A DNA stretch of 64,000 nucleotides from Candidatus Omnitrophota bacterium (GCA_041650795.1 JBAZKK010000003.1:2386-66385); one strand, 5' to 3'; positions 1,258 through 12,249 are shown, numbered from the stretch's first letter. Made by a program: numbers and translations. The notes: generated by a model not told the origin, from the letters alone.

Positions 1258-2459
1258 TGTCAATCCAGGTAATTGTAGAGAAATGCACCGGCTGTACGCT
1301 TTGTGTTAAGGCCTGTCCATTTGGCGCTATCAGCATGGCGGAGAAGAAGGCCAGGATAGACCTTAACAAATGCACCATTTGCGGGGCTTGCGTTCCAGCC
1401 TGTAAATTCAAGGCGATTTTGCTTGAGAAGACACCGGCTAAGTGCGAATTGCCGGACATCAAGGATTATAAAGGCATCTGGGTTTTTGTAGAGCAGAAAA
1501 ACGGCAAGGTGCAGTCCGTTTCCTATGAACTCTTAGGCAAGGCCCAGGAACTGGCCAAGAAGTTACATTGCCAGGTGAGCGGGGTTTTGATAGGCAATGC
1601 CATGGATGACCAGTTGGATGAACTGGGATGGAGAGGGGCGGATAATATTTATTTGGTGGAGGCCCCCGAGATAGCGAATTTCCAGGATGAACCTTATACC
1701 AATATCCTGGTAGAGCTGATTAAGAAATATAAGCCTGAGATCGTGCTCTGCGGAGCCACTGCTATCGGGCGTTCCCTGATTTCGCGGGTGGCTATAAACA
1801 TCAAGGCCGGCCTGACTGCCGATTGCACGGGGCTGGATATTGAGCCGGATAAGAAGATACTACTACAGACCCGCCCGGCTTTCGGAGGGAATATCATGGC
1901 GACCATCGTCAGCCCGAATTACCGGCCGCAGATGGCAACCGTTCGCCACAAGGTGATGCAGCCGATGGAGCCTGATAGGAAACGCAAGCCTAAGATCATC
2001 AGGGAGAAGTTTGGCAGCTCCTTTTACGCCTCCCGCACCAAGCTCCTGGATATAGTAGAGGAAATTGAATCCCTGGTAAATCTTGCTGAAGCGGATATTA
2101 TTGTTTCCGGAGGCCGCGGGATGGGTGGGCCGGAGAACTTTAAGATGTTGGAGGACCTGGCGCACGTATTAGGGGCGGCAGTAGGAGCTTCGCGCGCGGC
2201 AGTGGATTCGGGATGGAAGCCTTATTCGCATCAGGTAGGCCAGACCGGGCGCACCGTTGGCCCCAAGATCTACATTGCCTGTGGGATATCCGGTCAGATC
2301 CAGCATCTAGTGGGGATGCAATCCTCAAAGATTATCGTTGCTATCAATAAAGACCCCGAGGCCCCCATCTTTAAGGTCGCGACTTACGGCATAGTAGGCG
2401 ATCTCTTCCAGGTAGTCCCCGCCTTAACGAAGCGCTTCAAAGAAGTCCTCCGCAAATAA
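1257..2459 (+). CDS. etfA: electron transfer flavoprotein alpha subunit with N-terminal 2x[4Fe-4S] ferredoxin domain
   Basis: Two CxxCxxCxxxCP clusters (CTGCTLCVKACP, CTICGACVPACK) precede a canonical EtfA body (GGRGMG, SRAAVDSGW, QVGQTG, YIACGISGQIQH). Confidence 0.9.
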   Translation: MSIQVIVEKCTGCTLCVKACPFGAISMAEKKARIDLNKCTICGACVPACKFKAILLEKTPAKCELPDIKDYKGIWVFVEQKNGKVQSVSYELLGKAQELAKKLHCQVSGVLIGNAMDDQLDELGWRGADNIYLVEAPEIANFQDEPYTNILVELIKKYKPEIVLCGATAIGRSLISRVAINIKAGLTADCTGLDIEPDKKILLQTRPAFGGNIMATIVSPNYRPQMATVRHKVMQPMEPDRKRKPKIIREKFGSSFYASRTKLLDIVEEIESLVNLAEADIIVSGGRGMGGPENFKMLEDLAHVLGAAVGASRAAVDSGWKPYSHQVGQTGRTVGPKIYIACGISGQIQHLVGMQSSKIIVAINKDPEAPIFKVATYGIVGDLFQVVPALTKRFKEVLRK

Positions 2460-2583
2460 CAGAAACACTTTCCAATCTAAAGGGGAAACGTTTTTGTTCA
2501 CAATCGGGACAGTGTACATAAAAAAGAACACTGTCCCGAACAAAACGGAAAACGTTTCTGCTTTGGGACGGAAAGTGTTTCTG
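2460..2583. repeat. 124-bp nested palindrome (REP doublet / REPIN-like, LE+RE of the RAYT element without cargo)
   Basis: Outer arms cagaaacactttcc (2460..2473) and ggaaagtgtttctg (2570..2583) are perfect 14-bp inverted repeats. Inner hairpin is cgggacagtgt (2505..2515) / acactgtcccg (2528..2538). Middle module is gaaacgttt. The same modules recur at 9011..9066 and 9629..9686. Confidence 0.8.
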
Positions 2584-2660
2584 TTTGGGGAGAATTTGCA
2601 GTTTTTAGCAATATAAGAGAGAGAAAAGTATTCATATGTTAAAGAATGTTAAAATTTTCC

Positions 2661-2689
2661 TTGACAAAAGGCAAGGGTTTGTTTATAAT
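2661..2689 (+). promoter_or_regulatory. sigma70-type consensus promoter (TTGACA-N17-TATAAT) for the HTH-smc unit
   Basis: TTGACA at 2661..2666, exactly 17-nt spacer, TATAAT at 2684..2689. An A/T-rich tract (aaagaatgttaaaatttt) lies immediately upstream. Confidence 0.6.
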
Positions 2690-2726
2690 TACAACCAATG
2701 GAGAGAGAATGATTAACGGAGGTTTG

Positions 2727-2888
2727 ATGACCATAGAGGATTTAGCGGATTACCTTAAGGTTACGCGCCGCACTATCTACGAGTGGCTTAAGCAAAATAA
2801 GATACCGGCAGTGAAGCTCATAGGCCAGTGGCGTTTTCGTAAAGATAGAATTGATGCCTGGATTGAAAACCATTCTAAACTTCAATAA
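2727..2888 (+). CDS. small excisionase/MerR-superfamily helix-turn-helix (HTH_17-like) DNA-binding protein
   Basis: MTIEDLADYLKVTRRTIYEWLKQNKIPAVKLIGQWRFRKDRIDAWI matches the HTH_17 pattern. GGAGG lies 4 nt upstream of the ATG at 2727. The ORF-track start (2646) is upstream of the promoter; ATG 2709 is an alternative. Confidence 0.7.
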   Translation: MTIEDLADYLKVTRRTIYEWLKQNKIPAVKLIGQWRFRKDRIDAWIENHSKLQ

Positions 2889-2900
2889 AGGAGAGGCCGC

Positions 2901-5900
2901 ATGTATTTTAAGAGACTGGAGCTGGTAGGGTTTAAATCCTTCTGCAACAAAACCACTTTGCAATTTGAGCCTGGGGTTACCGCAGTTGTGGGCCCTAACG
3001 GCTGCGGCAAATGCCTGCATTATGATTCGCTGGTTACCTTAAGCGACGGTTCCCCGGTCAAAATCGGGGAATTAGTGGAGGCGGCTTTAAAAGAGGCGGG
3101 AGCGCCGGAAATATTAAACGACGGCTTGATGACTTCGGATAACCACCGCAATATTAAAATCCTTTCCCTGAACCCGGCTACGCTTAAGATTGAACCCAGG
3201 CCGGTATATGCCTTTATAAAGAGGAAGGCCCCGGATTATCTTCTGGAAGTCAAGACTAAATCCGGAAGAAAAGTCATCACCACCCACTACCATCCTTTTT
3301 TCAGCATTAAAGGCGGCCAGGTGATTGAGCTTAAGGCTGAGGAGCTCAAGGCAGGCACGAGGATTGCCGCTCCGAGGCTCATTAGGCAGCAAGAGGGCAG
3401 CCCTGATTTGGATTTATCGGGAATATTTAAAAAATTCAGCGCAGAGGATAACGTATATATTCCTTATTCAGAGGAATTTTCGGAATTTCTTTCTCAGGTC
3501 ACAGGCAGCAGTATTTCCCCTGCTCAGAGGACGGCAATAAAATCCTGCCGCAGCGGCCAGGCGATGAATATCGCCAACTTCAGCGCGTTGTTGGAGCAAA
3601 AGGGGATTAGAGAGGTCCCCGTTTTTGTAAGACGGCTTAAATCGCATAGCTGCGGGGAAATCAAGCTGCCGCGTAAGATGAGCCCCGCGATAGCCAGATT
3701 TCTCGGTTACCTTATTTCTGAAGGCAGGTCTACCAAAGAGAATCAAGTTTGGTTTGTGAATGGTGATAAGGATATCGTTGCGGATTTTACGGCCTGTGCC
3801 TACAGCGCATTTGAAGTAAAAGCCAAGGTTTTTAATTATAAACCTTGCGTCCAGGATGTCTTGATTTTCTCCAGCGCCTTGTGCGAATTCCTCCAGAAGG
3901 CCTTTATTTTCAATATCTCGGCCCCGTCAAGAGAAAAGGCGGTTCCGCCGCAGATATTCAGGTCTGATGAAAATATTATAAGAGAGTTTTTATCAACTCT
4001 CTTTGAAGGCGACGGCTATCTCTGTACCGATAAACAGAATAACAGCAAGAAGGCTTATTTTGAATATACCACCGCCTCCGGGGCATTGGCTTGCGGCGTC
4101 AGGAGCCTGTTGCTGCGCTTAGGGGTGCAGCCGGTAATCAGAAAAAAGCTGAAGGCAGCCACTAATACCAAGGAGAAAAACAAAAGGGTATATTATTCTG
4201 TTTATGTTTACGGGTTAGCTAATGCCAAACGCCTGGCTGAACTATTGCATTTTGTGGGCAAGAAATCCGCAAAACTCCAGGAGATTAAAAGACTGAAGTC
4301 TAAAAATAACCCCAATTTAGATTTAATCCCCGAGGTCAACGCCGTATTTAAAAAATTGACGCAACTGGCTGGCATCAATGTCAAAAAACTCAGGAAGACT
4401 TGCCCGAAGTTAGCTTCTTACTATGAGAACAGGTGTTTGCCCAGCCGCCAGGGGTTATTGGAGGCGCTGAGTATTGTTTCGGAGCACGGCAGGATTACCG
4501 GCTTAGCCGCAGCTTTATACCATTGCCTGAAAACCCTGGCCGTTTCGGATATTTACTGGGATGAAGTAACTAGTATTAAAAAAGTTTATTCAGAGGAATG
4601 GGTTTATGACCTTTCGGTATTAGAAACGCACAATTTTATTGCCGATGATATTATCGTTCATAACAGCAATATCTTTGATTCCATCCGCTGGGTATTGGGG
4701 GAGCAGTCTGTAAAGTCCCTGCGCGGCTCGGACATGCAGGATGTTATCTTTAACGGCACTGATAAAAAGGAGCCGTTAAGCATGGCCGAGGTGAGCGTTA
4801 CCTTTGATAATAAAACCAGGTTTTTCCCAGTTGACCATGACGAGATAATGATTTCCCGGCGCCTTTTCCGCTCCGGAGAAAGCGAGTACCTCCTGAACAA
4901 AACCCAGGTGCGCCTTAAGGACATCTCTGATTTATTGTTGGGTACCGGTATCGGAGCCGAGAGTTATTCCCTGGTGCCGCAGGGCAGGATAGATATGATT
5001 TTGAGTTCGCGGCCGGAGGACAGGCGCCTGGTATTTGACGAAGCCGCAGGCATAACTAAATATAAATCCCAGAAACGCGAGGCAATGCGTAAATTGGAAG
5101 AGACGGAGCAGAACCTCCTGCGCGTAAATGACATCATTACCGAGGTCAAGCGCCAGATCGGCTCCCTGGAGCGCCAGGCAAATAAAGCCAGGCGTTATAA
5201 GGAATTATTTGAGGAATTGAAAAACAAGGAGGTCAGGCTTGCCGTTTTGCAAAAGATAAGTTTCCTTAAGGACAGGGATGAGACCACGGCAGAGTTAAGC
5301 AGACTGCAGGAAAAAGAGTCCGAGGTCCTGAACGCCATCCAGGAGCAGGAGGTCAAGATTGCCGACCAGAAACAGGAAGCCAAGGCCCTTGAGGACGCTA
5401 TCAACAATATCAAGGGCAGGATCCTTAACCTCGATAACGGCATATCCCGCAGCCGCGAGCACATTACCATTTCCCGCGAGAGGATCAGCGAGCTTGAAGC
5501 CGGAAAGAAACGTATCGATGAGCAGATAGAACAGACCGCGGCGCGCATCAATGCCGATAAAGAAAAACTTGATGCCGTCAAGAAGGAATACAACGGGATA
5601 CAGAAGGAAATCGAGGAAAAGGGTGTTCTTCTGAAGGAAAAGGAAGGCGAGCTTAACAGCCTAGCAGTTGTTATAAAGCTGTCTTTGGATAATATTGCGG
5701 CAGCAAAGAAGAACCTTCTGGAACTGGCAGCCAAGGTCAGCAGCGCCAAGAATGAAGTTGCCGATTTTGCTGCCAAGGAACAGGTTTATCTGGCGCGCCA
5801 GAAAAGGCTGGAGGTAGAAAAAGCCAAGGTTAATGAAGAGAAGGCCGATGCGGAGTTAGCCTTCTCCACTATATCCCGGGAATTGTCAGGATTGCAGAGT

Positions 5901-7793
5901 AATTTTGCCGAGCTCGGCCTTAAGCTTAACGCAGCAAAGGAAGAATTGGGACAGGAAAAAATATCCCTTGAGCAGATCAATGCCTGCATTGCGGACCTTG
6001 AAAAGCAGAGGCTGGCGATGCAGTCCCAGAAAGAATTTCTGGAGGAGCTTAAATCCAAATACGATGATATAGGAGAATCCATGAGCGCCCTGCTCTATCT
6101 GGATAAGATGCCGGCAGAGAAGAGCTCGGGGATACTGATTAAGGTTAAAGAGTACCTGGAGCTTGCCGATGGCGATGGCGGGACAGCCGGCCATGCCAAT
6201 GTCAAGATATCCGGCGAGGCCAAGCCTATGGACCTGGACACCCAGAAGATTGGCGAACGCATTGCGCAGGTCGATATCAAGATAGCCAGCCTCAAAGAGA
6301 ATAAGGCTCATAAGCAGACACATATTGCGGAGCTCAAAAATAACATAGGGGCCCTGGAAGGTAATCTGCGTAGCGAGGAGATGGTTCTTGTTAATAAGCG
6401 TGCCCAACAGCAAACCGCAGAGGACGAGGTAAATAAAATCAAGAGCGAGGAAGAGATCATTGCGATAGAGCTTTCTGATATAACGGGAGCGCTATCCGGC
6501 CTCCAGGATGAACTGAACATCCGCAAAGCCTCCTTGGCTGCCTTAGAGGATGAGGAGAGGAGCGCGGAGGATTTGATTTCCGGAGAGCAGAATCGGATTA
6601 ATTCCAGCAATCAACTTAAAGAAGGCGTAATCGTAGCGATTACGCAGACCAGGGCAGAATTGGAAGCCCTTAATAAGCGCGTTAATTCCGACCAGGCAAC
6701 TATTGCGATACTGGAAGATACCTTCCGCCAGGACACGGAGGCGCTCGCCAGCCTTAATGAGCAAAAAGAGGCGGCTTTCGCTAAAGAGGCATCCCTGGAT
6801 GCCCAGATAAAAGATTTGGAAGAGGCGATTTTGAAGTCCGGGGAGGAGATCGAGAGTCAGAGGGCGGTCCTTAAGGATACCGAGGCCAGATTCGTAGCGG
6901 TCCTGGACGGCACTAGCGATATTACCCTGAAGATCGAGGCGGATAAGAAGGAAATAGATAGTATCAAAAGCAGGGTATATGAGTTTCAGATGCGTTCCAA
7001 GGAGGCGGAGTATAAGTACGGCGCCGTCAAGGAGAGGATATCGCAGGGATATAAGGTTGACCTGGATGCCGTTAGCGATGTTGTCTGTGAAGGCGATGAA
7101 GGTTCCTTAAGTGCAGAGATACAGGGGATGAAGGGAAAACTGGAGTCTTACGGTACGGTAAACCTGGTCGCCATTGAGGAATACGACGAGCTTAAGAAAC
7201 GTTATGATTTTCTCACCCAGCAGCAGGCGGATCTGTTGAATGCCAAGCAGTCACTGCATGAGGCAATACTAAAGCTTAACAAGACCACTAAGCACATGTT
7301 TCTGGAGACCTTCCAGAAGGTGGCTGCCGAGTTCCGTAATTACTTCCGGCTGCTCTTTAACGGGGGAGACGCCCAGGTCTTCTTGGTGGACGAACAGGAC
7401 CCCTTGGAGTGCGGCATTGAGATTATCTGCCGGCCGCCCGGGAAGAAACTTCAGAACGTGCTTTTGCTTTCGGGAGGCGAGAAATCCATGGCTGCCATAG
7501 CCCTGATTTTCGCCATATTCAAGATCAAACCGGCTCCGTTCTGCGTATTGGATGAGATTGATGCGGCTTTGGATGAAGCCAATGTTGACAGGTTCGGCAG
7601 GATGCTGCAGGAATTTACGAACGGTTCGCAATTCATCGTGATTACCCATAACAAAAAGACCATTGCCAACGCCGACGTGATGTATGGTATCACGATGGAG
7701 GAGTCTGGGGTATCCAAGATTATTTCAGTGAAGTTTTCGCAGGGTAAACCTTCTGTGCAACCCGAGGGAGTTCCGGTAGCAGAACCGGCTTAA
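2901..7793 (+). CDS. smc: chromosome segregation ATPase SMC, intein-containing precursor (1630 aa; 1079 aa after splicing)
   Basis: N-head MYFKRLELVGFKSF...GPNGCGK|intein|SNIFDSIRWVLGEQSVKSLRG. Long heptad-rich arms. C-head has signature LSGGEKSMAAIALIFAIF, Walker B FCVLDEIDAALD, and QFIVITHNK. Confidence 0.9.
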   Translation: MYFKRLELVGFKSFCNKTTLQFEPGVTAVVGPNGCGKCLHYDSLVTLSDGSPVKIGELVEAALKEAGAPEILNDGLMTSDNHRNIKILSLNPATLKIEPRPVYAFIKRKAPDYLLEVKTKSGRKVITTHYHPFFSIKGGQVIELKAEELKAGTRIAAPRLIRQQEGSPDLDLSGIFKKFSAEDNVYIPYSEEFSEFLSQVTGSSISPAQRTAIKSCRSGQAMNIANFSALLEQKGIREVPVFVRRLKSHSCGEIKLPRKMSPAIARFLGYLISEGRSTKENQVWFVNGDKDIVADFTACAYSAFEVKAKVFNYKPCVQDVLIFSSALCEFLQKAFIFNISAPSREKAVPPQIFRSDENIIREFLSTLFEGDGYLCTDKQNNSKKAYFEYTTASGALACGVRSLLLRLGVQPVIRKKLKAATNTKEKNKRVYYSVYVYGLANAKRLAELLHFVGKKSAKLQEIKRLKSKNNPNLDLIPEVNAVFKKLTQLAGINVKKLRKTCPKLASYYENRCLPSRQGLLEALSIVSEHGRITGLAAALYHCLKTLAVSDIYWDEVTSIKKVYSEEWVYDLSVLETHNFIADDIIVHNSNIFDSIRWVLGEQSVKSLRGSDMQDVIFNGTDKKEPLSMAEVSVTFDNKTRFFPVDHDEIMISRRLFRSGESEYLLNKTQVRLKDISDLLLGTGIGAESYSLVPQGRIDMILSSRPEDRRLVFDEAAGITKYKSQKREAMRKLEETEQNLLRVNDIITEVKRQIGSLERQANKARRYKELFEELKNKEVRLAVLQKISFLKDRDETTAELSRLQEKESEVLNAIQEQEVKIADQKQEAKALEDAINNIKGRILNLDNGISRSREHITISRERISELEAGKKRIDEQIEQTAARINADKEKLDAVKKEYNGIQKEIEEKGVLLKEKEGELNSLAVVIKLSLDNIAAAKKNLLELAAKVSSAKNEVADFAAKEQVYLARQKRLEVEKAKVNEEKADAELAFSTISRELSGLQSNFAELGLKLNAAKEELGQEKISLEQINACIADLEKQRLAMQSQKEFLEELKSKYDDIGESMSALLYLDKMPAEKSSGILIKVKEYLELADGDGGTAGHANVKISGEAKPMDLDTQKIGERIAQVDIKIASLKENKAHKQTHIAELKNNIGALEGNLRSEEMVLVNKRAQQQTAEDEVNKIKSEEEIIAIELSDITGALSGLQDELNIRKASLAALEDEERSAEDLISGEQNRINSSNQLKEGVIVAITQTRAELEALNKRVNSDQATIAILEDTFRQDTEALASLNEQKEAAFAKEASLDAQIKDLEEAILKSGEEIESQRAVLKDTEARFVAVLDGTSDITLKIEADKKEIDSIKSRVYEFQMRSKEAEYKYGAVKERISQGYKVDLDAVSDVVCEGDEGSLSAEIQGMKGKLESYGTVNLVAIEEYDELKKRYDFLTQQQADLLNAKQSLHEAILKLNKTTKHMFLETFQKVAAEFRNYFRLLFNGGDAQVFLVDEQDPLECGIEIICRPPGKKLQNVLLLSGGEKSMAAIALIFAIFKIKPAPFCVLDEIDAALDEANVDRFGRMLQEFTNGSQFIVITHNKKTIANADVMYGITMEESGVSKIISVKFSQGKPSVQPEGVPVAEPA
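3012..4664 (+). mobile_element. class-1 intein (551 aa) with LAGLIDADG homing endonuclease, inserted in the SMC Walker A P-loop
   Basis: Starts with Cys (CLHYDSLVTLSDGS). Block B is TTHYH (TxxH). Block F/G is VYDLSVLETHNFIADDIIVHN, followed by Ser+1. In-frame length is 1653 nt. Excision restores GPNGCGKSNIFDSIRW. Confidence 0.9.
3699..4016 (+). other. double-motif LAGLIDADG endonuclease core within the intein
   Basis: Motif 1 FLGYLISEG (3699..3725) and motif 2 FLSTLFEGDG (3987..4016) are about 96 aa apart, as in monomeric LAGLIDADG enzymes. Confidence 0.8.
6075..6260 (+). other. non-coiled mid-segment of SMC (mini-hinge, ~60 aa) in place of the canonical hinge domain
   Basis: ESMSALLYLDKMPAEKSSGILIKVKEYLELADGDGGTAGHANVKISGEAKPMDLDTQKIGERI is the only break between the two ~300-340 aa heptad arms. 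No GRATFLPL-type or repeated G-rich hinge motifs are visible. Confidence 0.6.
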
Positions 7794-8968
7794 GAAATGT
7801 AACAGCAGGTTTTATTTTTTCCCTGATCCTTGGCCTGATAAAGCGCCTGGTCGGACAGAAAGATTAATTCCGCAGCGCTGGAAGCGTTATCCGGGAACGA
7901 GGCCAAGCCGATGCTTACGGTAAGTTTTTTATTCGGAAGTATCTCTTCGTGCAGAAAGGAATGCTTTTCGATATCCTGCCTTAGGCGTTCCGCAATCAGA
8001 TAAACCTCATTTCTCTGGGACTCCGGCACTATAATCGCAAATTCCTCTCCGCCGTAACGGCAGACGAAGTCCATTTTACGGGAATGGCTTTTAAGCAGGC
8101 CGGCTAATTCTTTGAGGATTTTGTCTCCCGCCTGATGCCCCAGCGTGTCGTTATATATTTTAAAGTCGTCAATATCAATCATTATCAGGCTCAGGCGTCC
8201 CCGGGTAGCCTTGGCTTTTTCCAGCTCTTCCTGCAGAAGATAACGGAAGTAACCGTGGTTCCAGAGCTCGGTGAGGGAGTCTGAGTGGGCACGGACCACT
8301 GTTTTTTCATAAAGATGGGAATTATCGATGGCCAACCCGGCTTGGTTAGCCAGCATTATCAGCATGCGCATATCGTTTTTGTCAATGGGCTTTTTGGTGA
8401 TGAAATTATCGGCGATGATGATGCCGTTTACCCTGTCTTTGGCTTTTAATGGCACGACTGCCAGCTCGTCGGTTTTCAATAATTTTATTACGGTATCCGA
8501 TTGGTAGGAGACGATGCTTTCTTTTGTCAGGTGCAAGGGCATTCCTTCCAGGACAGTCAGCGCCAGCAATCCCCCCCTGGTATCATGCAGGGGAATCTTG
8601 AGAAGTTTAATCTCCTGGTTGAAGGTGGATTCCTGGGGGGAGGATTTTTGGTATGCGCTGATGAGGTCATCCATATCCATTTTGTGATGCTCTATGTGTT
8701 TCCAAATGTGGTTAGCGTCTTCACCGTTGTCCGGGCCGATACCCATCTTGCCTTCGATGATATTTTCCTTGTCATTTACCAAAAAGAGCATGGCGCGGTT
8801 GAACCCGAGTCCGGTGTGCGCAGTTACGCCTGTCAGAATGATGTATAGTATCTCATCCAGCTTTAAGGTAGTGCGCATAGCATTGGAAATCTCATAGAGT
8901 ATGCTAAGCTCGCGCTGGGCGCGTTCTAATTCGTTCTGGTATTCTTCCGGTTTTTTGGCGCCTTCCAT
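7790..8968 (-). CDS. GAF-domain diguanylate cyclase (GGDEF)
   Basis: C-terminal GGDEF domain has active site RYGGEEF and an RxxD I-site (RKMD) 5 residues upstream. The N-terminal region is GAF-like (LDEILYIILTGV...GFNRAMLFLV). Its stop overlaps the smc stop (shared TTAA at 7790..7793). Confidence 0.9.
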   Translation of the reverse strand: MEGAKKPEEYQNELERAQRELSILYEISNAMRTTLKLDEILYIILTGVTAHTGLGFNRAMLFLVNDKENIIEGKMGIGPDNGEDANHIWKHIEHHKMDMDDLISAYQKSSPQESTFNQEIKLLKIPLHDTRGGLLALTVLEGMPLHLTKESIVSYQSDTVIKLLKTDELAVVPLKAKDRVNGIIIADNFITKKPIDKNDMRMLIMLANQAGLAIDNSHLYEKTVVRAHSDSLTELWNHGYFRYLLQEELEKAKATRGRLSLIMIDIDDFKIYNDTLGHQAGDKILKELAGLLKSHSRKMDFVCRYGGEEFAIIVPESQRNEVYLIAERLRQDIEKHSFLHEEILPNKKLTVSIGLASFPDNASSAAELIFLSDQALYQAKDQGKNKTCCYIS

Positions 8969-8977
8969 AATGCTTAG

Positions 8978-9006
8978 AATTTAACATATTTTAAGCCTCC
9001 TGTCAA
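8978..9006 (-). promoter_or_regulatory. candidate promoter of the GGDEF gene (TTGACA-N17-TAAATT on the minus strand)
   Basis: Minus-strand TTGACA = 9006..9001, 17-nt spacer, TAAATT = 8983..8978. Only 9 nt separate it from the ATG (8968) and there is no SD, implying a near-leaderless mRNA. Confidence 0.35.
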
Positions 9007-9010
9007 CCTA

Positions 9011-9066
9011 CAGAAACACTTTCCAATCCATAGCAGAAACGTTTTCCGAGCCAAACCGGACAGTGT
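9011..9066. repeat. REP-type left end (modules 1, 2 and left arm of module 3)
   Basis: cagaaacactttccaatc (9011..9028) is 18/18 identical to 2460..2477. cagaaacgttttcc (9034..9047) is the exact reverse complement of 2547..2560. cggacagtgt lies at 9057..9066. Confidence 0.75.
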
Positions 9067-9135
9067 TATTTGATAAAAATTTTTGTTAGGTATATATTGT
9101 TTGCGCGTCTATTAAAGCAAAAGGGGGTGATTTTT

Positions 9136-9621
9136 ATGTCAGCGCGCTCAAAGATATTATTGAAAAACGGATGTTACCATCTAACTGCCAGAGGCAATCA
9201 AAAACAACGAATTTTCTTAGATGATCAAGACTACGCGGCATTCGTCGGGCGTTTAAAAAAATACAAAAGAAGATATGGTTTAAAGCTTTACGGTTTTTGC
9301 CTGATGCCGAACCATTTACATCTCATCGCTGAATTTGACGAACCGCAATGGTTATCTAAATTCATGCAGGTGATTTTACGGTCTTACACGAGTTATTTCA
9401 ACAAAAAATATAATAAAGTTGGCCATTTGTGGCAAGGCAGATTCAACAGCAGACTTATTACAAGGGATGCTTATTTGCTGGATTGTTTAAATTATGTCGA
9501 ATTCAATCCGGTAAGAGCTGGTATAGCCAGGAGCGCGGGAGATTATAAGTGGAGTAGCTATAAAGAACGAGCGCTCGAAAAAACAGCGGATTTTCTGTTA
9601 ATTGACTCTCTTGAACTTTAA
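9136..9621 (+). CDS. REP-associated tyrosine transposase-like protein (Y1_Tnp / IS200-like HUH family)
   Basis: HUH motif in LMPNHLHLIAE. Motif GHLWQGRFNSRLI. Catalytic-Tyr motif LNYVEFNPVRAGIA...YKWSSY. RBS aaggggg precedes the ATG at 9136; the ORF-track start at 9070 is probably too far upstream. Confidence 0.85.
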   Translation: MSARSKILLKNGCYHLTARGNQKQRIFLDDQDYAAFVGRLKKYKRRYGLKLYGFCLMPNHLHLIAEFDEPQWLSKFMQVILRSYTSYFNKKYNKVGHLWQGRFNSRLITRDAYLLDCLNYVEFNPVRAGIARSAGDYKWSSYKERALEKTADFLLIDSLEL

Positions 9622-9628
9622 TAATTAA

Positions 9629-9686
9629 AGACACTTTCCCGATTGCGTTGGAAAACGTTTCCCGATTGTATTGGAAAGTGTTTCTG
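9629..9686. repeat. REP-type right end (degenerate module 1 forward, module 2 reverse, module 1 reverse)
   Basis: ggaaaacgtttc (9650..9661) equals 2547..2558. ggaaagtgtttctg (9673..9686) is 14/14 identical to 2570..2583. There is an internal direct repeat tttcccgattg x2 (9635..9645, 9658..9668). Confidence 0.75.
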
Positions 9687-9698
9687 ATTATTAAATAA

Positions 9699-9727
9699 TT
9701 GACAGGGGCAAGGGGGTGGGATATAAT
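9699..9727 (+). promoter_or_regulatory. sigma70-type consensus promoter (TTGACA-N17-TATAAT) upstream of recA
   Basis: TTGACA at 9699..9704, 17-nt G-rich spacer ggggcaagggggtggga, TATAAT at 9722..9727. It lies 12 nt from the RAYT right end. Confidence 0.6.
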
Positions 9728-9786
9728 AAAAGACTCTATTTGAACGAGTTTCGGCTAAAATTCAAATTTGCGGACCGGAGGTAATT

Positions 9787-10812
9787 ATGTCAACCGTTGA
9801 GAAGAAAAAAGAGGATGCAAAGAATATTTCAGATAGGCATAAGGCGCTTGAATTGGCTTTGATGCAGATTGAAAAGCAGTTCGGCAAGGGCTCGATTATG
9901 AAGCTGGGGGGGGATGTCAAGGTCAACGTAGAGGCAATCCCTACTGGCGCCTTGACCCTGGATTGGGCGTTGGGGGTAGGAGGACTGCCTCGCGGAAGGG
10001 TAATCGAGGTTTTCGGGCCGGAAGCTTCCGGAAAAACCACCCTGACTTTGACCGTAATACGCGAAATCCAGAAAAAAGGCGGGGTAGCAGCTTTTATTGA
10101 TGCGGAGCATGCCTTTGACTCTACCTATGCCAAGATTATAGGCGTCAATCTCGAAGACCTTTTAATATCCCAGCCGGATACCGGCGAGCAGGCCCTGGAG
10201 ATTGCGGAAACCCTGGTGCGCTCCAACGCCGTGGACGTAGTAGTAATTGATTCCGTGGCTGCCTTGACCCCGCGCGCCGAGATCGAGGGGGAAATGGGTG
10301 ATTCGCACGTGGGCTTGCAGGCGCGCCTGATGTCGCAGGCACTGCGTAAACTTACCGCTGCCATAAGCAAGTCGCGCACCTGCGTGATTTTTATCAATCA
10401 GATACGCGAGAAGATCGGGGTGATGTTTGGTTCTCCCGAAACTACCCCCGGCGGCCGTGCGTTAAAATTCTACTCTTCAGTGCGCCTGGACGTAAGAAAG
10501 ATAGCTACCCTGAAGGCCGCGGATATGGTCATCGGCAACAGGGTCAGGGTCCGGGTAGTCAAGAACAAGGTCGCCCCGCCTTTCAAGGAGGGTGAGTTTG
10601 AAATACTGCATAACGAAGGCATTTCCAAGACCGGAAGCATAATCGACGCCGGTATAAACCTCAGTGTAATCGAAAAATCCGGCACTTGGCTTTCTTACGC
10701 CACCACTAAGCTTGGGCAGGGCCGCGACGCCGCCATCAAAACCCTGAAAGAGCAGCCTAAGCTGCAGGATGAGATTGAAAAGGAAATCCGGAAAAAAATT
10801 ACCTTAGGTTAA
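9787..10812 (+). CDS. recA: recombinase RecA
   Basis: [14 protein letters not shown], Walker [36 protein letters not shown]. Confidence 0.97.
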
Positions 10813-10830: not shown

Positions 10831-12249
10831 ATGAGAGTTAGGGGTATACTGCTGATCATGGCCTTAGCAGCAGGCGTAAGCGCAGGAGTATGGGAAACAG
10901 GAAGGGCTGCGCAGCCAGAAACCCTGCCCCAGGCAAGCGGCATTGAGGATGCAGTGGTAAACGTTGCCGCCAAGGTAGGCAAGGCAGTGGTTTCCATCAG
11001 CACCGAACATAAGATCCCTTCCGATAAAAATAAAAGGGTGTATTTTAATTCCCCGTTCGGAGATGAGGAATTTTTCCGCCGTTTCTTCGATGAATTCTTC
11101 GGCGATATGCCTGAGCGTGATTACCGCCAGGTGGCGCTGGGCTCCGGCGTAATCGTTGACCCGCAGGGTTACATCCTTACCAATGAGCACGTAGTCGAGG
11201 ATGCCGATAAGATTACGGTCACTCTTCCGGATGGAAGGGAATTCAAGGGAGAGGTGAAAGGCCGGGATCCCCGTTCAGATCTTGCTATTATAAAAATAGA
11301 TGCCAATAACCTTTCGGTGGTGCAGTTAGGGGAATCGGAGAGCCTTAAGATCGGACAGTGGGTCCTGGCAATCGGAAATCCTTTTGGCTTTGCTATGCAG
11401 AATCCGGAGCCTACGGTTACGGTCGGGGTAGTCAGCGCCCTGCACCGTTCGCTCGGTAGGAGCATCTCGCGGGAGCGCGATTACAATGATTTAATCCAGA
11501 CTGACGCTGCAATTAACCCCGGCAATTCCGGAGGCCCCCTGGTGAATCTCAAGGGAGAGGTGGTCGGAATTAATGCCGCTATATTCTCCACCAACGGAGG
11601 ATACCAGGGGATAGGTTTTGCCATCCCCATCAATACTGCCAGGAGGATAATCTCGCGGCTTATTGAAGGCAAAAAGATTGTTTACGGCTGGCTTGGTATA
11701 ACGGTGCAGGATATGTCAGTGGATTTAGCAAAACACCTGGGCCTTAAGGATAAAAACGGAGCCTTAATAGCAACCGTGCTTCCAGCAGGTCCGGCGGAAA
11801 AAGCAGGCATGAAAGAAGGGGATATCATCCGTAAATTCGATAACACTGATGTCAATAACGTAAGGGAGCTTTTGAGCCTTGTCGGCAGGGCCGAGCCGGG
11901 ACGCAAGGTAAAGGCAACACTGCTGCGCAATAATAAGGAGCTAACCTTGAACGTCGAGGTGGGAGAGAGGCCGGATAACCTTGAGGAATCGGATGCCGGC
12001 GCCACCCGGAACAAAAGCAAAAAGTGGCGCGGGCTTGAGGTTTCCGAGTCGCAGAAAGGGCTGGTTATTTCTGAGATTGAGCAGGGCAGCGCCGCGGATG
12101 ATGCGGGTCTGGTAGCCGGAGAGGTGATCCAGGAAATTGATAAGCAGCCCGTTAAAACCCTTTCGGATTACCAGAAGGCCATTAAAGGGGTCAAGGGAGA
12201 TTGCCTTGTTAAGACCTCGCGCGGCTATTTCCTTATCAAGGGTGACTGA
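10831..12249 (+). CDS. htrA: periplasmic serine endoprotease HtrA/DegP family (trypsin domain + 2 PDZ)
   Basis: Signal-like N-terminus. Catalytic triad context TNEHVV / DLAIIK / GNSGGPL. Two PDZ-like segments follow. Confidence 0.9.
   Translation: MRVRGILLIMALAAGVSAGVWETGRAAQPETLPQASGIEDAVVNVAAKVGKAVVSISTEHKIPSDKNKRVYFNSPFGDEEFFRRFFDEFFGDMPERDYRQVALGSGVIVDPQGYILTNEHVVEDADKITVTLPDGREFKGEVKGRDPRSDLAIIKIDANNLSVVQLGESESLKIGQWVLAIGNPFGFAMQNPEPTVTVGVVSALHRSLGRSISRERDYNDLIQTDAAINPGNSGGPLVNLKGEVVGINAAIFSTNGGYQGIGFAIPINTARRIISRLIEGKKIVYGWLGITVQDMSVDLAKHLGLKDKNGALIATVLPAGPAEKAGMKEGDIIRKFDNTDVNNVRELLSLVGRAEPGRKVKATLLRNNKELTLNVEVGERPDNLEESDAGATRNKSKKWRGLEVSESQKGLVISEIEQGSAADDAGLVAGEVIQEIDKQPVKTLSDYQKAIKGVKGDCLVKTSRGYFLIKGD

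Follow-up and report, generated by a model that had tools for sequence, protein, structure and literature searches.

A probable REPtron with untagged repeats between the GGDEF and recA promoters of a Candidatus Omnitrophota bacterium

The DNA considered here, hereafter the window, is a stretch of 64,000 nucleotides from a Candidatus Omnitrophota bacterium (GCA_041650795.1 JBAZKK010000003.1:2386-66385). Between a gene that encodes a GAF-GGDEF protein and the gene that encodes RecA, positions 9011-9686 hold a single gene (9136..9621, + strand) flanked by two repeat arms. The product is a protein of 161 aa. Its HUH motif (H60-L-H62, nt 9313-9321) is part of the sequence NHLHL (residues 59-63, nt 9310-9324), and the tyrosine of its YVEFNPVRAG motif is the catalytic residue Y120 (nt 9493-9495). 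The start codon is the ATG at 9136, which is preceded by the Shine-Dalgarno sequence GGGGGTG (9123-9129) at a distance of 6 nt; a longer frame of 183 aa that starts from TTG 9070 was ruled out, because of this Shine-Dalgarno sequence and because nearly all of the best 120 homologues are 159-163 aa long. No tnpB-like ORF was found beside the gene among the ORFs of the window.

The initial annotation of this DNA assigned the protein, from its HUH and tyrosine motifs, to the REP-associated tyrosine transposases (RAYT, also called TnpA-REP); the family models, the fold and the catalytic residues all agree with this assignment. The Pfam model Y1_Tnp (PF01797), which had been proposed as a check, matches the ORF with E = 1e-12. 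The NCBIfam equivalog for RAYT (NF047646, REP_Tyr_transpos) gives the protein 94.7 bits, above its cutoff of 80, and that for IS200 (NF033573, transpos_IS200) gives 14.8 bits, below its cutoff of 55. The homologue family comprises 1,692 matches, and nearly all of the best 120 of these 1,692 are 159-163 aa long; wherever the source of a homologue is named, it is Candidatus Omnitrophota. H60, H62, Y120, N124 and P125 show no variation in an alignment of 40 homologues.

Among the solved structures, the E. coli TnpA-REP (4ER8) alone matches the protein significantly by sequence. In this alignment the HLH sequence corresponds to HMH, Y120 to Y115 and N124 to N119, and the residues that align with E100 and R104, which bind the GTAG sequence in E. 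coli, differ in the window RAYT. The AlphaFold model calculated with the 40 homologues as input (pLDDT 87.9, pTM 0.85) has 4er8_A as its top fold match, with a TM score of 0.74 over 163 columns, compared to about 0.5 over about 118 columns for the IS608, ISDra2 and IS200 transposases. A C-terminal extension of about 25 aa sets TnpA-REP apart from the IS200 core (PMC3479197). The window protein has this extension, since 163 columns align with 4er8_A and only about 118 with IS608 or ISDra2. From the family model, the fold and the catalytic residues, the protein is a RAYT and not an IS200 transposase.

The left repeat arm (9011..9066, + strand) consists of 23-nt units (CAGAAACACTTTCC and CAGAAACGTTTTCC) and a half unit (GGACAGTGT). 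The right repeat arm (9631..9686, - strand) is the reverse complement of the left one, is by itself also a mini-palindrome of three units, and carries a clade-wide motif, AATCGGGAAAGTGT, at 9631-9644 on the - strand. The two arms (56 nt each) form an inverted pair which is 79% complementary. The flanking ends described in the initial annotation were recovered as these two arms, with the right one beginning at 9631. Taken separately, the ends fold weakly as single-stranded DNA (z = -1.4 for the left end, about -3 for the right end, 9620-9692). The direct repeat with a 23-bp period that had been noticed in the right end is there, and the left end carries one too.

A second locus of the window, 2460..2583, is a palindrome without a gene, in which two 56-nt arms are arranged head-to-head around a 12-nt spacer. 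It lies 1 nt past a stop codon and about 75 nt 5' of the promoter-like site of the next gene. The ends of the RAYT locus do match this palindrome, as had been claimed: they are 71-82% identical to its halves (46/57 identical positions for the left arm and the left half). The same range holds for all pairs of the four arms, in which the unit cores are conserved and the linkers are variable. When up to 2 mismatches are allowed, the 14-mer CAGAAACACTTTCC occurs six times in the window, for 0.36 expected, and is confined to these two loci. An nhmmer profile of the arm, run over the 64 kb, returns exactly the four arms with E values of about 1e-17 (2e-17 for the left arm), and no further diverged copy in the window. 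The palindrome folds strongly as single-stranded DNA (-42 kcal/mol, z = -10.1, none of 200 shuffled sequences being as stable). A search for Rfam-type RNA families over 2300-10000 gave sub-threshold matches to miRNA hairpins on the palindrome and nothing else.

A 5' GT[AG]G tetranucleotide at the hairpin foot defines the canonical REP (PMC6006769, PMC3733652). This GTAG/GTGG tag is absent from all four arms, on either strand, and the conserved foot motif of this clade is AATC...GATT. The palindrome at 2460-2583 is, like a REPIN doublet, an extragenic pair of inverted repeats with a short spacer and a long predicted hairpin, and the RAYT gene is flanked, like that of a REPtron, by cognate repeats in inverted orientation. 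The repeat whose inverted copies form the ends of the RAYT locus also occurs without the gene, in line with the RAYT/REP reading first proposed. Since the RAYT gene sits inside one split palindrome, the gene-less copy resembles an internal-deletion derivative.

Between the left arm and the start codon, the RAYT upstream block (9067..9135, + strand) contains TTGTTAG (9083-9089), CGTCTATTAA (9106-9115) and, at 9123-9129, the Shine-Dalgarno sequence given above. A promoter scan detects a promoter-like sequence inside this block, TTGATA-17-TATATT at 9070-9098. The block would act as a promoter or a 5' UTR, and the predicted RAYT promoter may read through into recA.

A promoter-like site flanks the locus on each side: that of the GAF-GGDEF gene (8978..9006, - strand; TTGACA-17-TAAATT with a TG before the -10 hexamer) and that of recA (9699..9727, + strand; TTGACA-17-TATAAT, 12/12 matches). 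The element had been described as wedged between two divergent promoters, 5 nt from the first and 12 nt from the second. The arrangement stands, and the promoter scan confirms that 12 nt separate the right arm from the recA -35 hexamer, but the gap between the left arm and the GGDEF -35 hexamer (9006..9001, - strand) is 4 nt. Both promoter motifs are kept in five lineages (the window, L034, L035, L038 and L040), whether the RAYT gene is present or absent, and the GGDEF -35 hexamer is at a constant 35 nt from the start codon in all five. The spacing between the two -35 hexamers is 692 nt with the RAYT gene and 136-183 nt without it. The geometry is therefore real, because both motifs are conserved in position and in sequence in the five lineages. 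As a separate observation, no Shine-Dalgarno sequence precedes the GGDEF gene (8966..9006, - strand), and a 45-nt region there is highly conserved in the five lineages; with 10 nt from the -10-like hexamer to the start codon, the GGDEF transcript would have little or no leader.

The gene order SMC, GGDEF, RAYT, recA, together with the repeat arms, is common to the window and to a contig of the organism JBAZNT01 (L025/L034), which is about 88% identical to the window. The RAYT proteins of the window and of L034 are 98.8% identical, with a dN/dS of 0.039. In three more distant relatives, L035, L038 and L040 (GGDEF 79%, 77% and 72% identical), recA is adjacent to GGDEF and the RAYT ORF is absent; in L036/L037 (73%), recA is no longer adjacent to GGDEF. 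The initial annotation suggested comparing this intergenic region between related genomes so as to find an empty site. The comparison gave no virgin empty site: L035, L038 and L040, the three candidates, were ruled out as such, since the RAYT upstream block, the inner repeat unit or both can be aligned with their spacers. The L035 spacer aligns through a degenerate inner unit and 70 nt 5' of the RAYT start; the outer unit, the ORF and the right arm are all missing from it. The L038 and L040 spacers retain TTGTTAG...ACGTCTATTAA...AAAGG. The block occupies positions 3369-3441 in L035, 3813-3895 in L038 and 3777-3842 in L040.

The layout of this block (TTGTTAG, 16 nt, CGTCTATTAA, Shine-Dalgarno) is also found 5' of RAYT homologues in six unrelated contexts, and the block is for this reason most likely part of the RAYT gene. 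A profile built for nhmmer from the six unrelated contexts only was used as an independent test for remnants. Its best two matches are the L035 and L040 spacers, in the right orientation and with non-significant E values (0.6-0.8), and it missed L038 as well as the window's own block, so that its support is one of rank only. With moderate confidence, and judging from these alignments, the RAYT-less spacers of L035, L038 and L040 would be deletions. At the same moderate level of confidence, the RAYT gene would be ancestral at the GGDEF-recA position and would have been deleted in these three lineages. Indeed, the remnants in the relatives without the ORF make it likelier that the gene is old here and was lost elsewhere than that it was recently inserted. 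The 11-mer ACGTCTATTAA is fully conserved 5' of the recA promoter in the relatives without the ORF, where it may now serve recA.

The cassettes of the window and of L034 diverge little. Over the 723 nt of the tract 8964-9686, 23 differences separate the two sequences, and 111 consecutive nucleotides, which cover the left arm (100% identical in L034) and the GGDEF promoter, have none. The cassette and the GGDEF promoter are 93-100% identical to L034, compared to about 88% for the flanking genes. Just outside the right arm (9686), the divergence from L034 jumps to 18 differences per 100 nt, and the right boundary of the high-identity tract is at most 1 nt from the outer end of the arm. The synonymous divergence (pS) is 0.134 for the RAYT gene and 0.43-0.44 for GGDEF and recA (Fisher p = 6e-9). 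A pS three times lower than that of the neighbours and a tract that ends at the right arm are not predicted by simple vertical inheritance; the low pS could result either from a constraint at the DNA level or from a recent exchange of the cassette. The RAYT ORF is AT-rich in every host examined, with a GC content of 0.32-0.40 in hosts of 0.39-0.53.

Six other RAYT homologues (L003, L005, L008, L043, L044 and L045), 51-61% identical to that of the window, are located in six different neighbourhoods and are all bracketed by inverted repeats. These loci have in common an inner motif, AATCGGGAAAsTGT, 83-121 nt 5' of the ATG, and its complement 17-48 nt 3' of the stop codon. The outer units vary by lineage (e.g., GGACAGCGTGTCC in L003), and gene-less copies of the repeat lie within 2.5 kb of the RAYT gene in L005 and L045. 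A small hairpin common to all units was considered and dropped: it is GGAAA-NNN-TTTCC in the window and GGACA-GCG-TGTCC in L003, and neither L043 nor L008 retains it. One homologue on a viral contig, which is distant (38%) and has unrelated flanks, was left out of the comparisons. As regards orientation, the six RAYT genes are opposed to nearly all the genes around them, over as much as 10 kb on either side, and lie on the C-rich strand; those of the window and of L034 are on the G-rich strand and have the same orientation as recA.

The initial annotation held that its reading would fail if the protein grouped with non-transposase PF01797 relatives without associated repeats and the repeats occurred nowhere else in the genome. 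Gene-less copies were found in the window itself, in contigs of the metagenome sample Ga0265297 and in JBAZNT01. The strict pattern used, an outer unit followed after 10-12 nt by GAAACG, matched 13 stretches of metagenome DNA, 8 of which are contigs of Ga0265297. In the species-representative genomes, it matched three contigs of the Omnitrophota MAG JBAZNT01, and otherwise lone sequences that look like chance matches. The lone units in the unrelated L017-L020, L024, L026, L027, L031 and L032 were discarded as chance, since they have no second unit and form no palindrome. Between their genes, the Ga0265297 contigs have palindromic arrays built from three to five 23-nt units (61, 62, 84 and 107 nt long); the units occur in both orientations, and some contigs bear several clusters. 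No RAYT gene was found on the repeat-bearing contigs (about 79 kb). The repeat is thus present at several intergenic loci, 8 or more, that are free of transposase in close relatives.

Two pairs of Ga0265297 contigs are orthologous, with 82-86% identity, which means that the sample holds two related populations; the window organism may belong to one of them. An element of 107 nt and five units (L021 3523-3629, L022 10472-10578) is 93% identical between the members of a pair when one copy is reverse-complemented, versus 75% in the same orientation, and its flanks are collinear. This element was therefore flipped or re-inserted in place. At another orthologous site, an element of 61 nt is 95% conserved, compared to about 86% for its flanks, and the number of units per array varies between orthologous sites. 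The repeat family is real, extragenic, gene-less and rearranging. Classic REPs are present in more than 100 copies. The family considered here could be far smaller, since there is one gene-less copy in 64 kb and three loci in JBAZNT01; it appears small, judging from pattern scans. A second repeat type, with GAAACAGTTTC cores 39 nt apart, is present in L014 (4370-4453 and 5676-5728) as two copies that have an identical stretch of 53 nt; it could represent a further subfamily within the same population of the metagenome.

Nearly all characterised RAYT/REPIN systems come from Proteobacteria, and a literature search returned no description of such a system in Omnitrophota. The E. coli TnpA-REP (YafM, 4ER8; PMC3479197, PMC6006769) is the closest in terms of protein, since the HUH and tyrosine motifs align and the fold match is the best one, C-terminal extension included, although the sequence identity to the window RAYT is only about 18-20% and the host phyla differ (Proteobacteria and Omnitrophota). 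In the E. coli REPtron and BIMEs too, the gene is flanked by inverted cognate repeats and the arrays are regularly spaced, in both orientations. Unlike the E. coli REPs, the window repeats lack the 5' GTAG tag, their units are short (a stem of 5 bp and a loop of 3 nt, with a 23-nt period), and the gene is inside a single palindrome rather than among several complete REP pairs.

The RAYT/REPIN system of P. fluorescens SBW25 (PMC3116915, PMC5581495) resembles that of the window, whose gene occurs once in the DNA examined, in having a single-copy gene under purifying selection at a locus that persists across lineages, extragenic gene-less doublets that form long hairpins, and elements that are retained at orthologous sites of diverged genomes. 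The flanking 16-mers of RAYT Groups 2 and 3 are counted 57-140 times (PMC3116915, PMC5581495); the window family appears much smaller, as judged from pattern scans, and its cassette has an unusually low synonymous divergence, in both of which it differs from SBW25. Among the TnpA-Y1 proteins classified by Quentin et al. (2018, PMC6006769), subclass 2.6 and class 3 have flanks that are likewise untagged, fold weakly alone and have copies elsewhere. Subclass 2.6 is dominated by Bacteroidetes (PMC6006769), and the likeness is one of repeat features. The AATC...GATT motif at both feet of the inner stem is reminiscent of the "double foot" REPs of subclass 2.4 (PMC6006769). As to IS200/IS605 elements, the TnpA of IS608 and ISDra2 have the same Y1 HUH fold (TM about 0.5) and presumably the same chemistry on ssDNA hairpins. 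The window protein, however, fails the IS200 model and carries the additional C-terminal extension, and its element has ends that are inverted repeats of each other, no tnpB and no multiple copies in the DNA examined.

The locus 9011-9686 is most probably a REPtron, that is, a single RAYT gene flanked by its own cognate REP sequences. It is an instance of a known system, RAYT/REP, in Omnitrophota, with repeats that are atypical and untagged. The RAYT gene lies between the two 56-nt arms of one palindrome, each arm being an array of 23-nt units, and 2460-2583 would be the non-autonomous, REPIN-like form, with the arms and without the gene. By analogy with the E. coli TnpA-REP (PMC3479197, PMC8266576), the RAYT would recognize and bind the folded repeat on ssDNA. 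Tyr120 would cut the strand and form a 5'-phosphotyrosine, with a metal held by H60 and H62, again by analogy. By rejoining the strands, the RAYT could then relocate gene-less palindromes from one intergenic site to another, copy them or invert them. The RAYT gene itself would stay put: it would be inherited vertically, over the long term and under strong purifying selection, in the GGDEF-recA spacer, where it fills the gap between two conserved divergent promoters and touches neither. RAYT genes are typically present once per genome, inherited vertically and evolve like housekeeping genes (PMC5581495). Here, the 64 kb of the window hold one RAYT gene and the other contigs with repeats hold none, but the threefold lower pS of the cassette is not what simple vertical inheritance predicts.

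Some of the observations are reminiscent of an insertion sequence. The cassette might be an autonomous, IS-like mobile unit that is still moved or exchanged as a whole, the gene-less palindromes being its MITE-like internal-deletion derivatives. Such a unit would explain that the gene-less palindrome amounts to the left arm plus the right arm with nothing but a 12-nt spacer, that the high-identity tract stops within 1 nt of the right arm in a cassette whose pS is threefold below that of its neighbours, and that the ORF (GC 0.32-0.40) is poorer in GC than its hosts (0.39-0.53). The seven homologues are moreover in seven contexts, and six of the seven are oriented against their neighbours, which recalls the strand bias of IS200/IS605. 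Yet it is the RAYT model that the protein passes and the IS200 model that it fails, and its C-terminal extension is typical of TnpA-REP. The gene occurs once in the window and not at all in the approximately 79 kb of repeat-bearing contigs, and it is found at the same locus in two lineages that are about 12% diverged, with remnants in three more. The inverted-repeat ends also speak against an IS200/IS605 element, which is not known to have terminal inverted repeats. This reading is therefore improbable. Unlikely too, if only slightly less so, is the related proposal that the whole cassette is still inserted, replaced or exchanged as a unit between diverged lineages, with end-precise junctions, and that the gene-less palindromes derive from it by internal deletion. 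Some room is left for a cassette that behaves as a unit because of the split palindrome, the end of the tract, the low pS and the AT-rich ORF. REPtrons are currently not considered to transpose as units; if this one did, it would stand, as a living intermediate, between insertion sequences of the IS200 type and domesticated RAYT/REPIN systems.

At the other extreme, the nuclease could be fully domesticated and mobilise nothing, with the arrays kept because they serve the host in a structural or regulatory capacity, as DNA or as RNA (e.g., as insulators or RNA-end hairpins where promoters and genes are closely spaced). The position of the arrays directly after stop codons and directly before promoters is consistent with such a role, as are the 111 nt of arm and GGDEF promoter that are 100% conserved between lineages otherwise 12% different, and the housekeeping-like dN/dS. 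This explanation is very improbable, however: the invariance of the HUH and tyrosine residues in 40 homologues argues for a nuclease chemistry that would have been retained, one element has been flipped in place between lineages, and arrays at orthologous sites are not equal in their number of units. The scan for intrinsic terminators, which gave no terminator-like site in the right arm, also counts against it.

A REPtron in the GGDEF-recA spacer would bring the RAYT/REPIN logic to an uncultured phylum in a compact form, where the gene splits one palindrome and a gene-less copy lies intact 6.5 kb away. This locus and the homologue family with its conserved inner motif provide clean candidate substrates for RAYT recognition that does not depend on the GTAG tag. 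The remnants in the relatives without the gene, together with the in-place inversion, provide evidence, modest but concrete, about the loss and rearrangement of such systems. The leads most worth following are the conservation at the level of the cassette and the in-place inversion.

Two other genes near the locus vary between the same lineages. Between recA and recX, the window has a gene for an HtrA-like trypsin/PDZ protease (10831..12249); L034 and L038 lack it and have an ORF of 79 aa or nothing instead, and L035 and L040 have it. The SMC gene (2901..7793) contains an intein (about 3011..4661) which is about 550 aa long, includes a LAGLIDADG domain and is inserted in the Walker A motif (GPNGCGK|CLHYD...VHN|SNIF). 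This intein is absent from L025/L034 and from L035 (SMC of 1079 aa), and the SMC of L040 is also intein-bearing.
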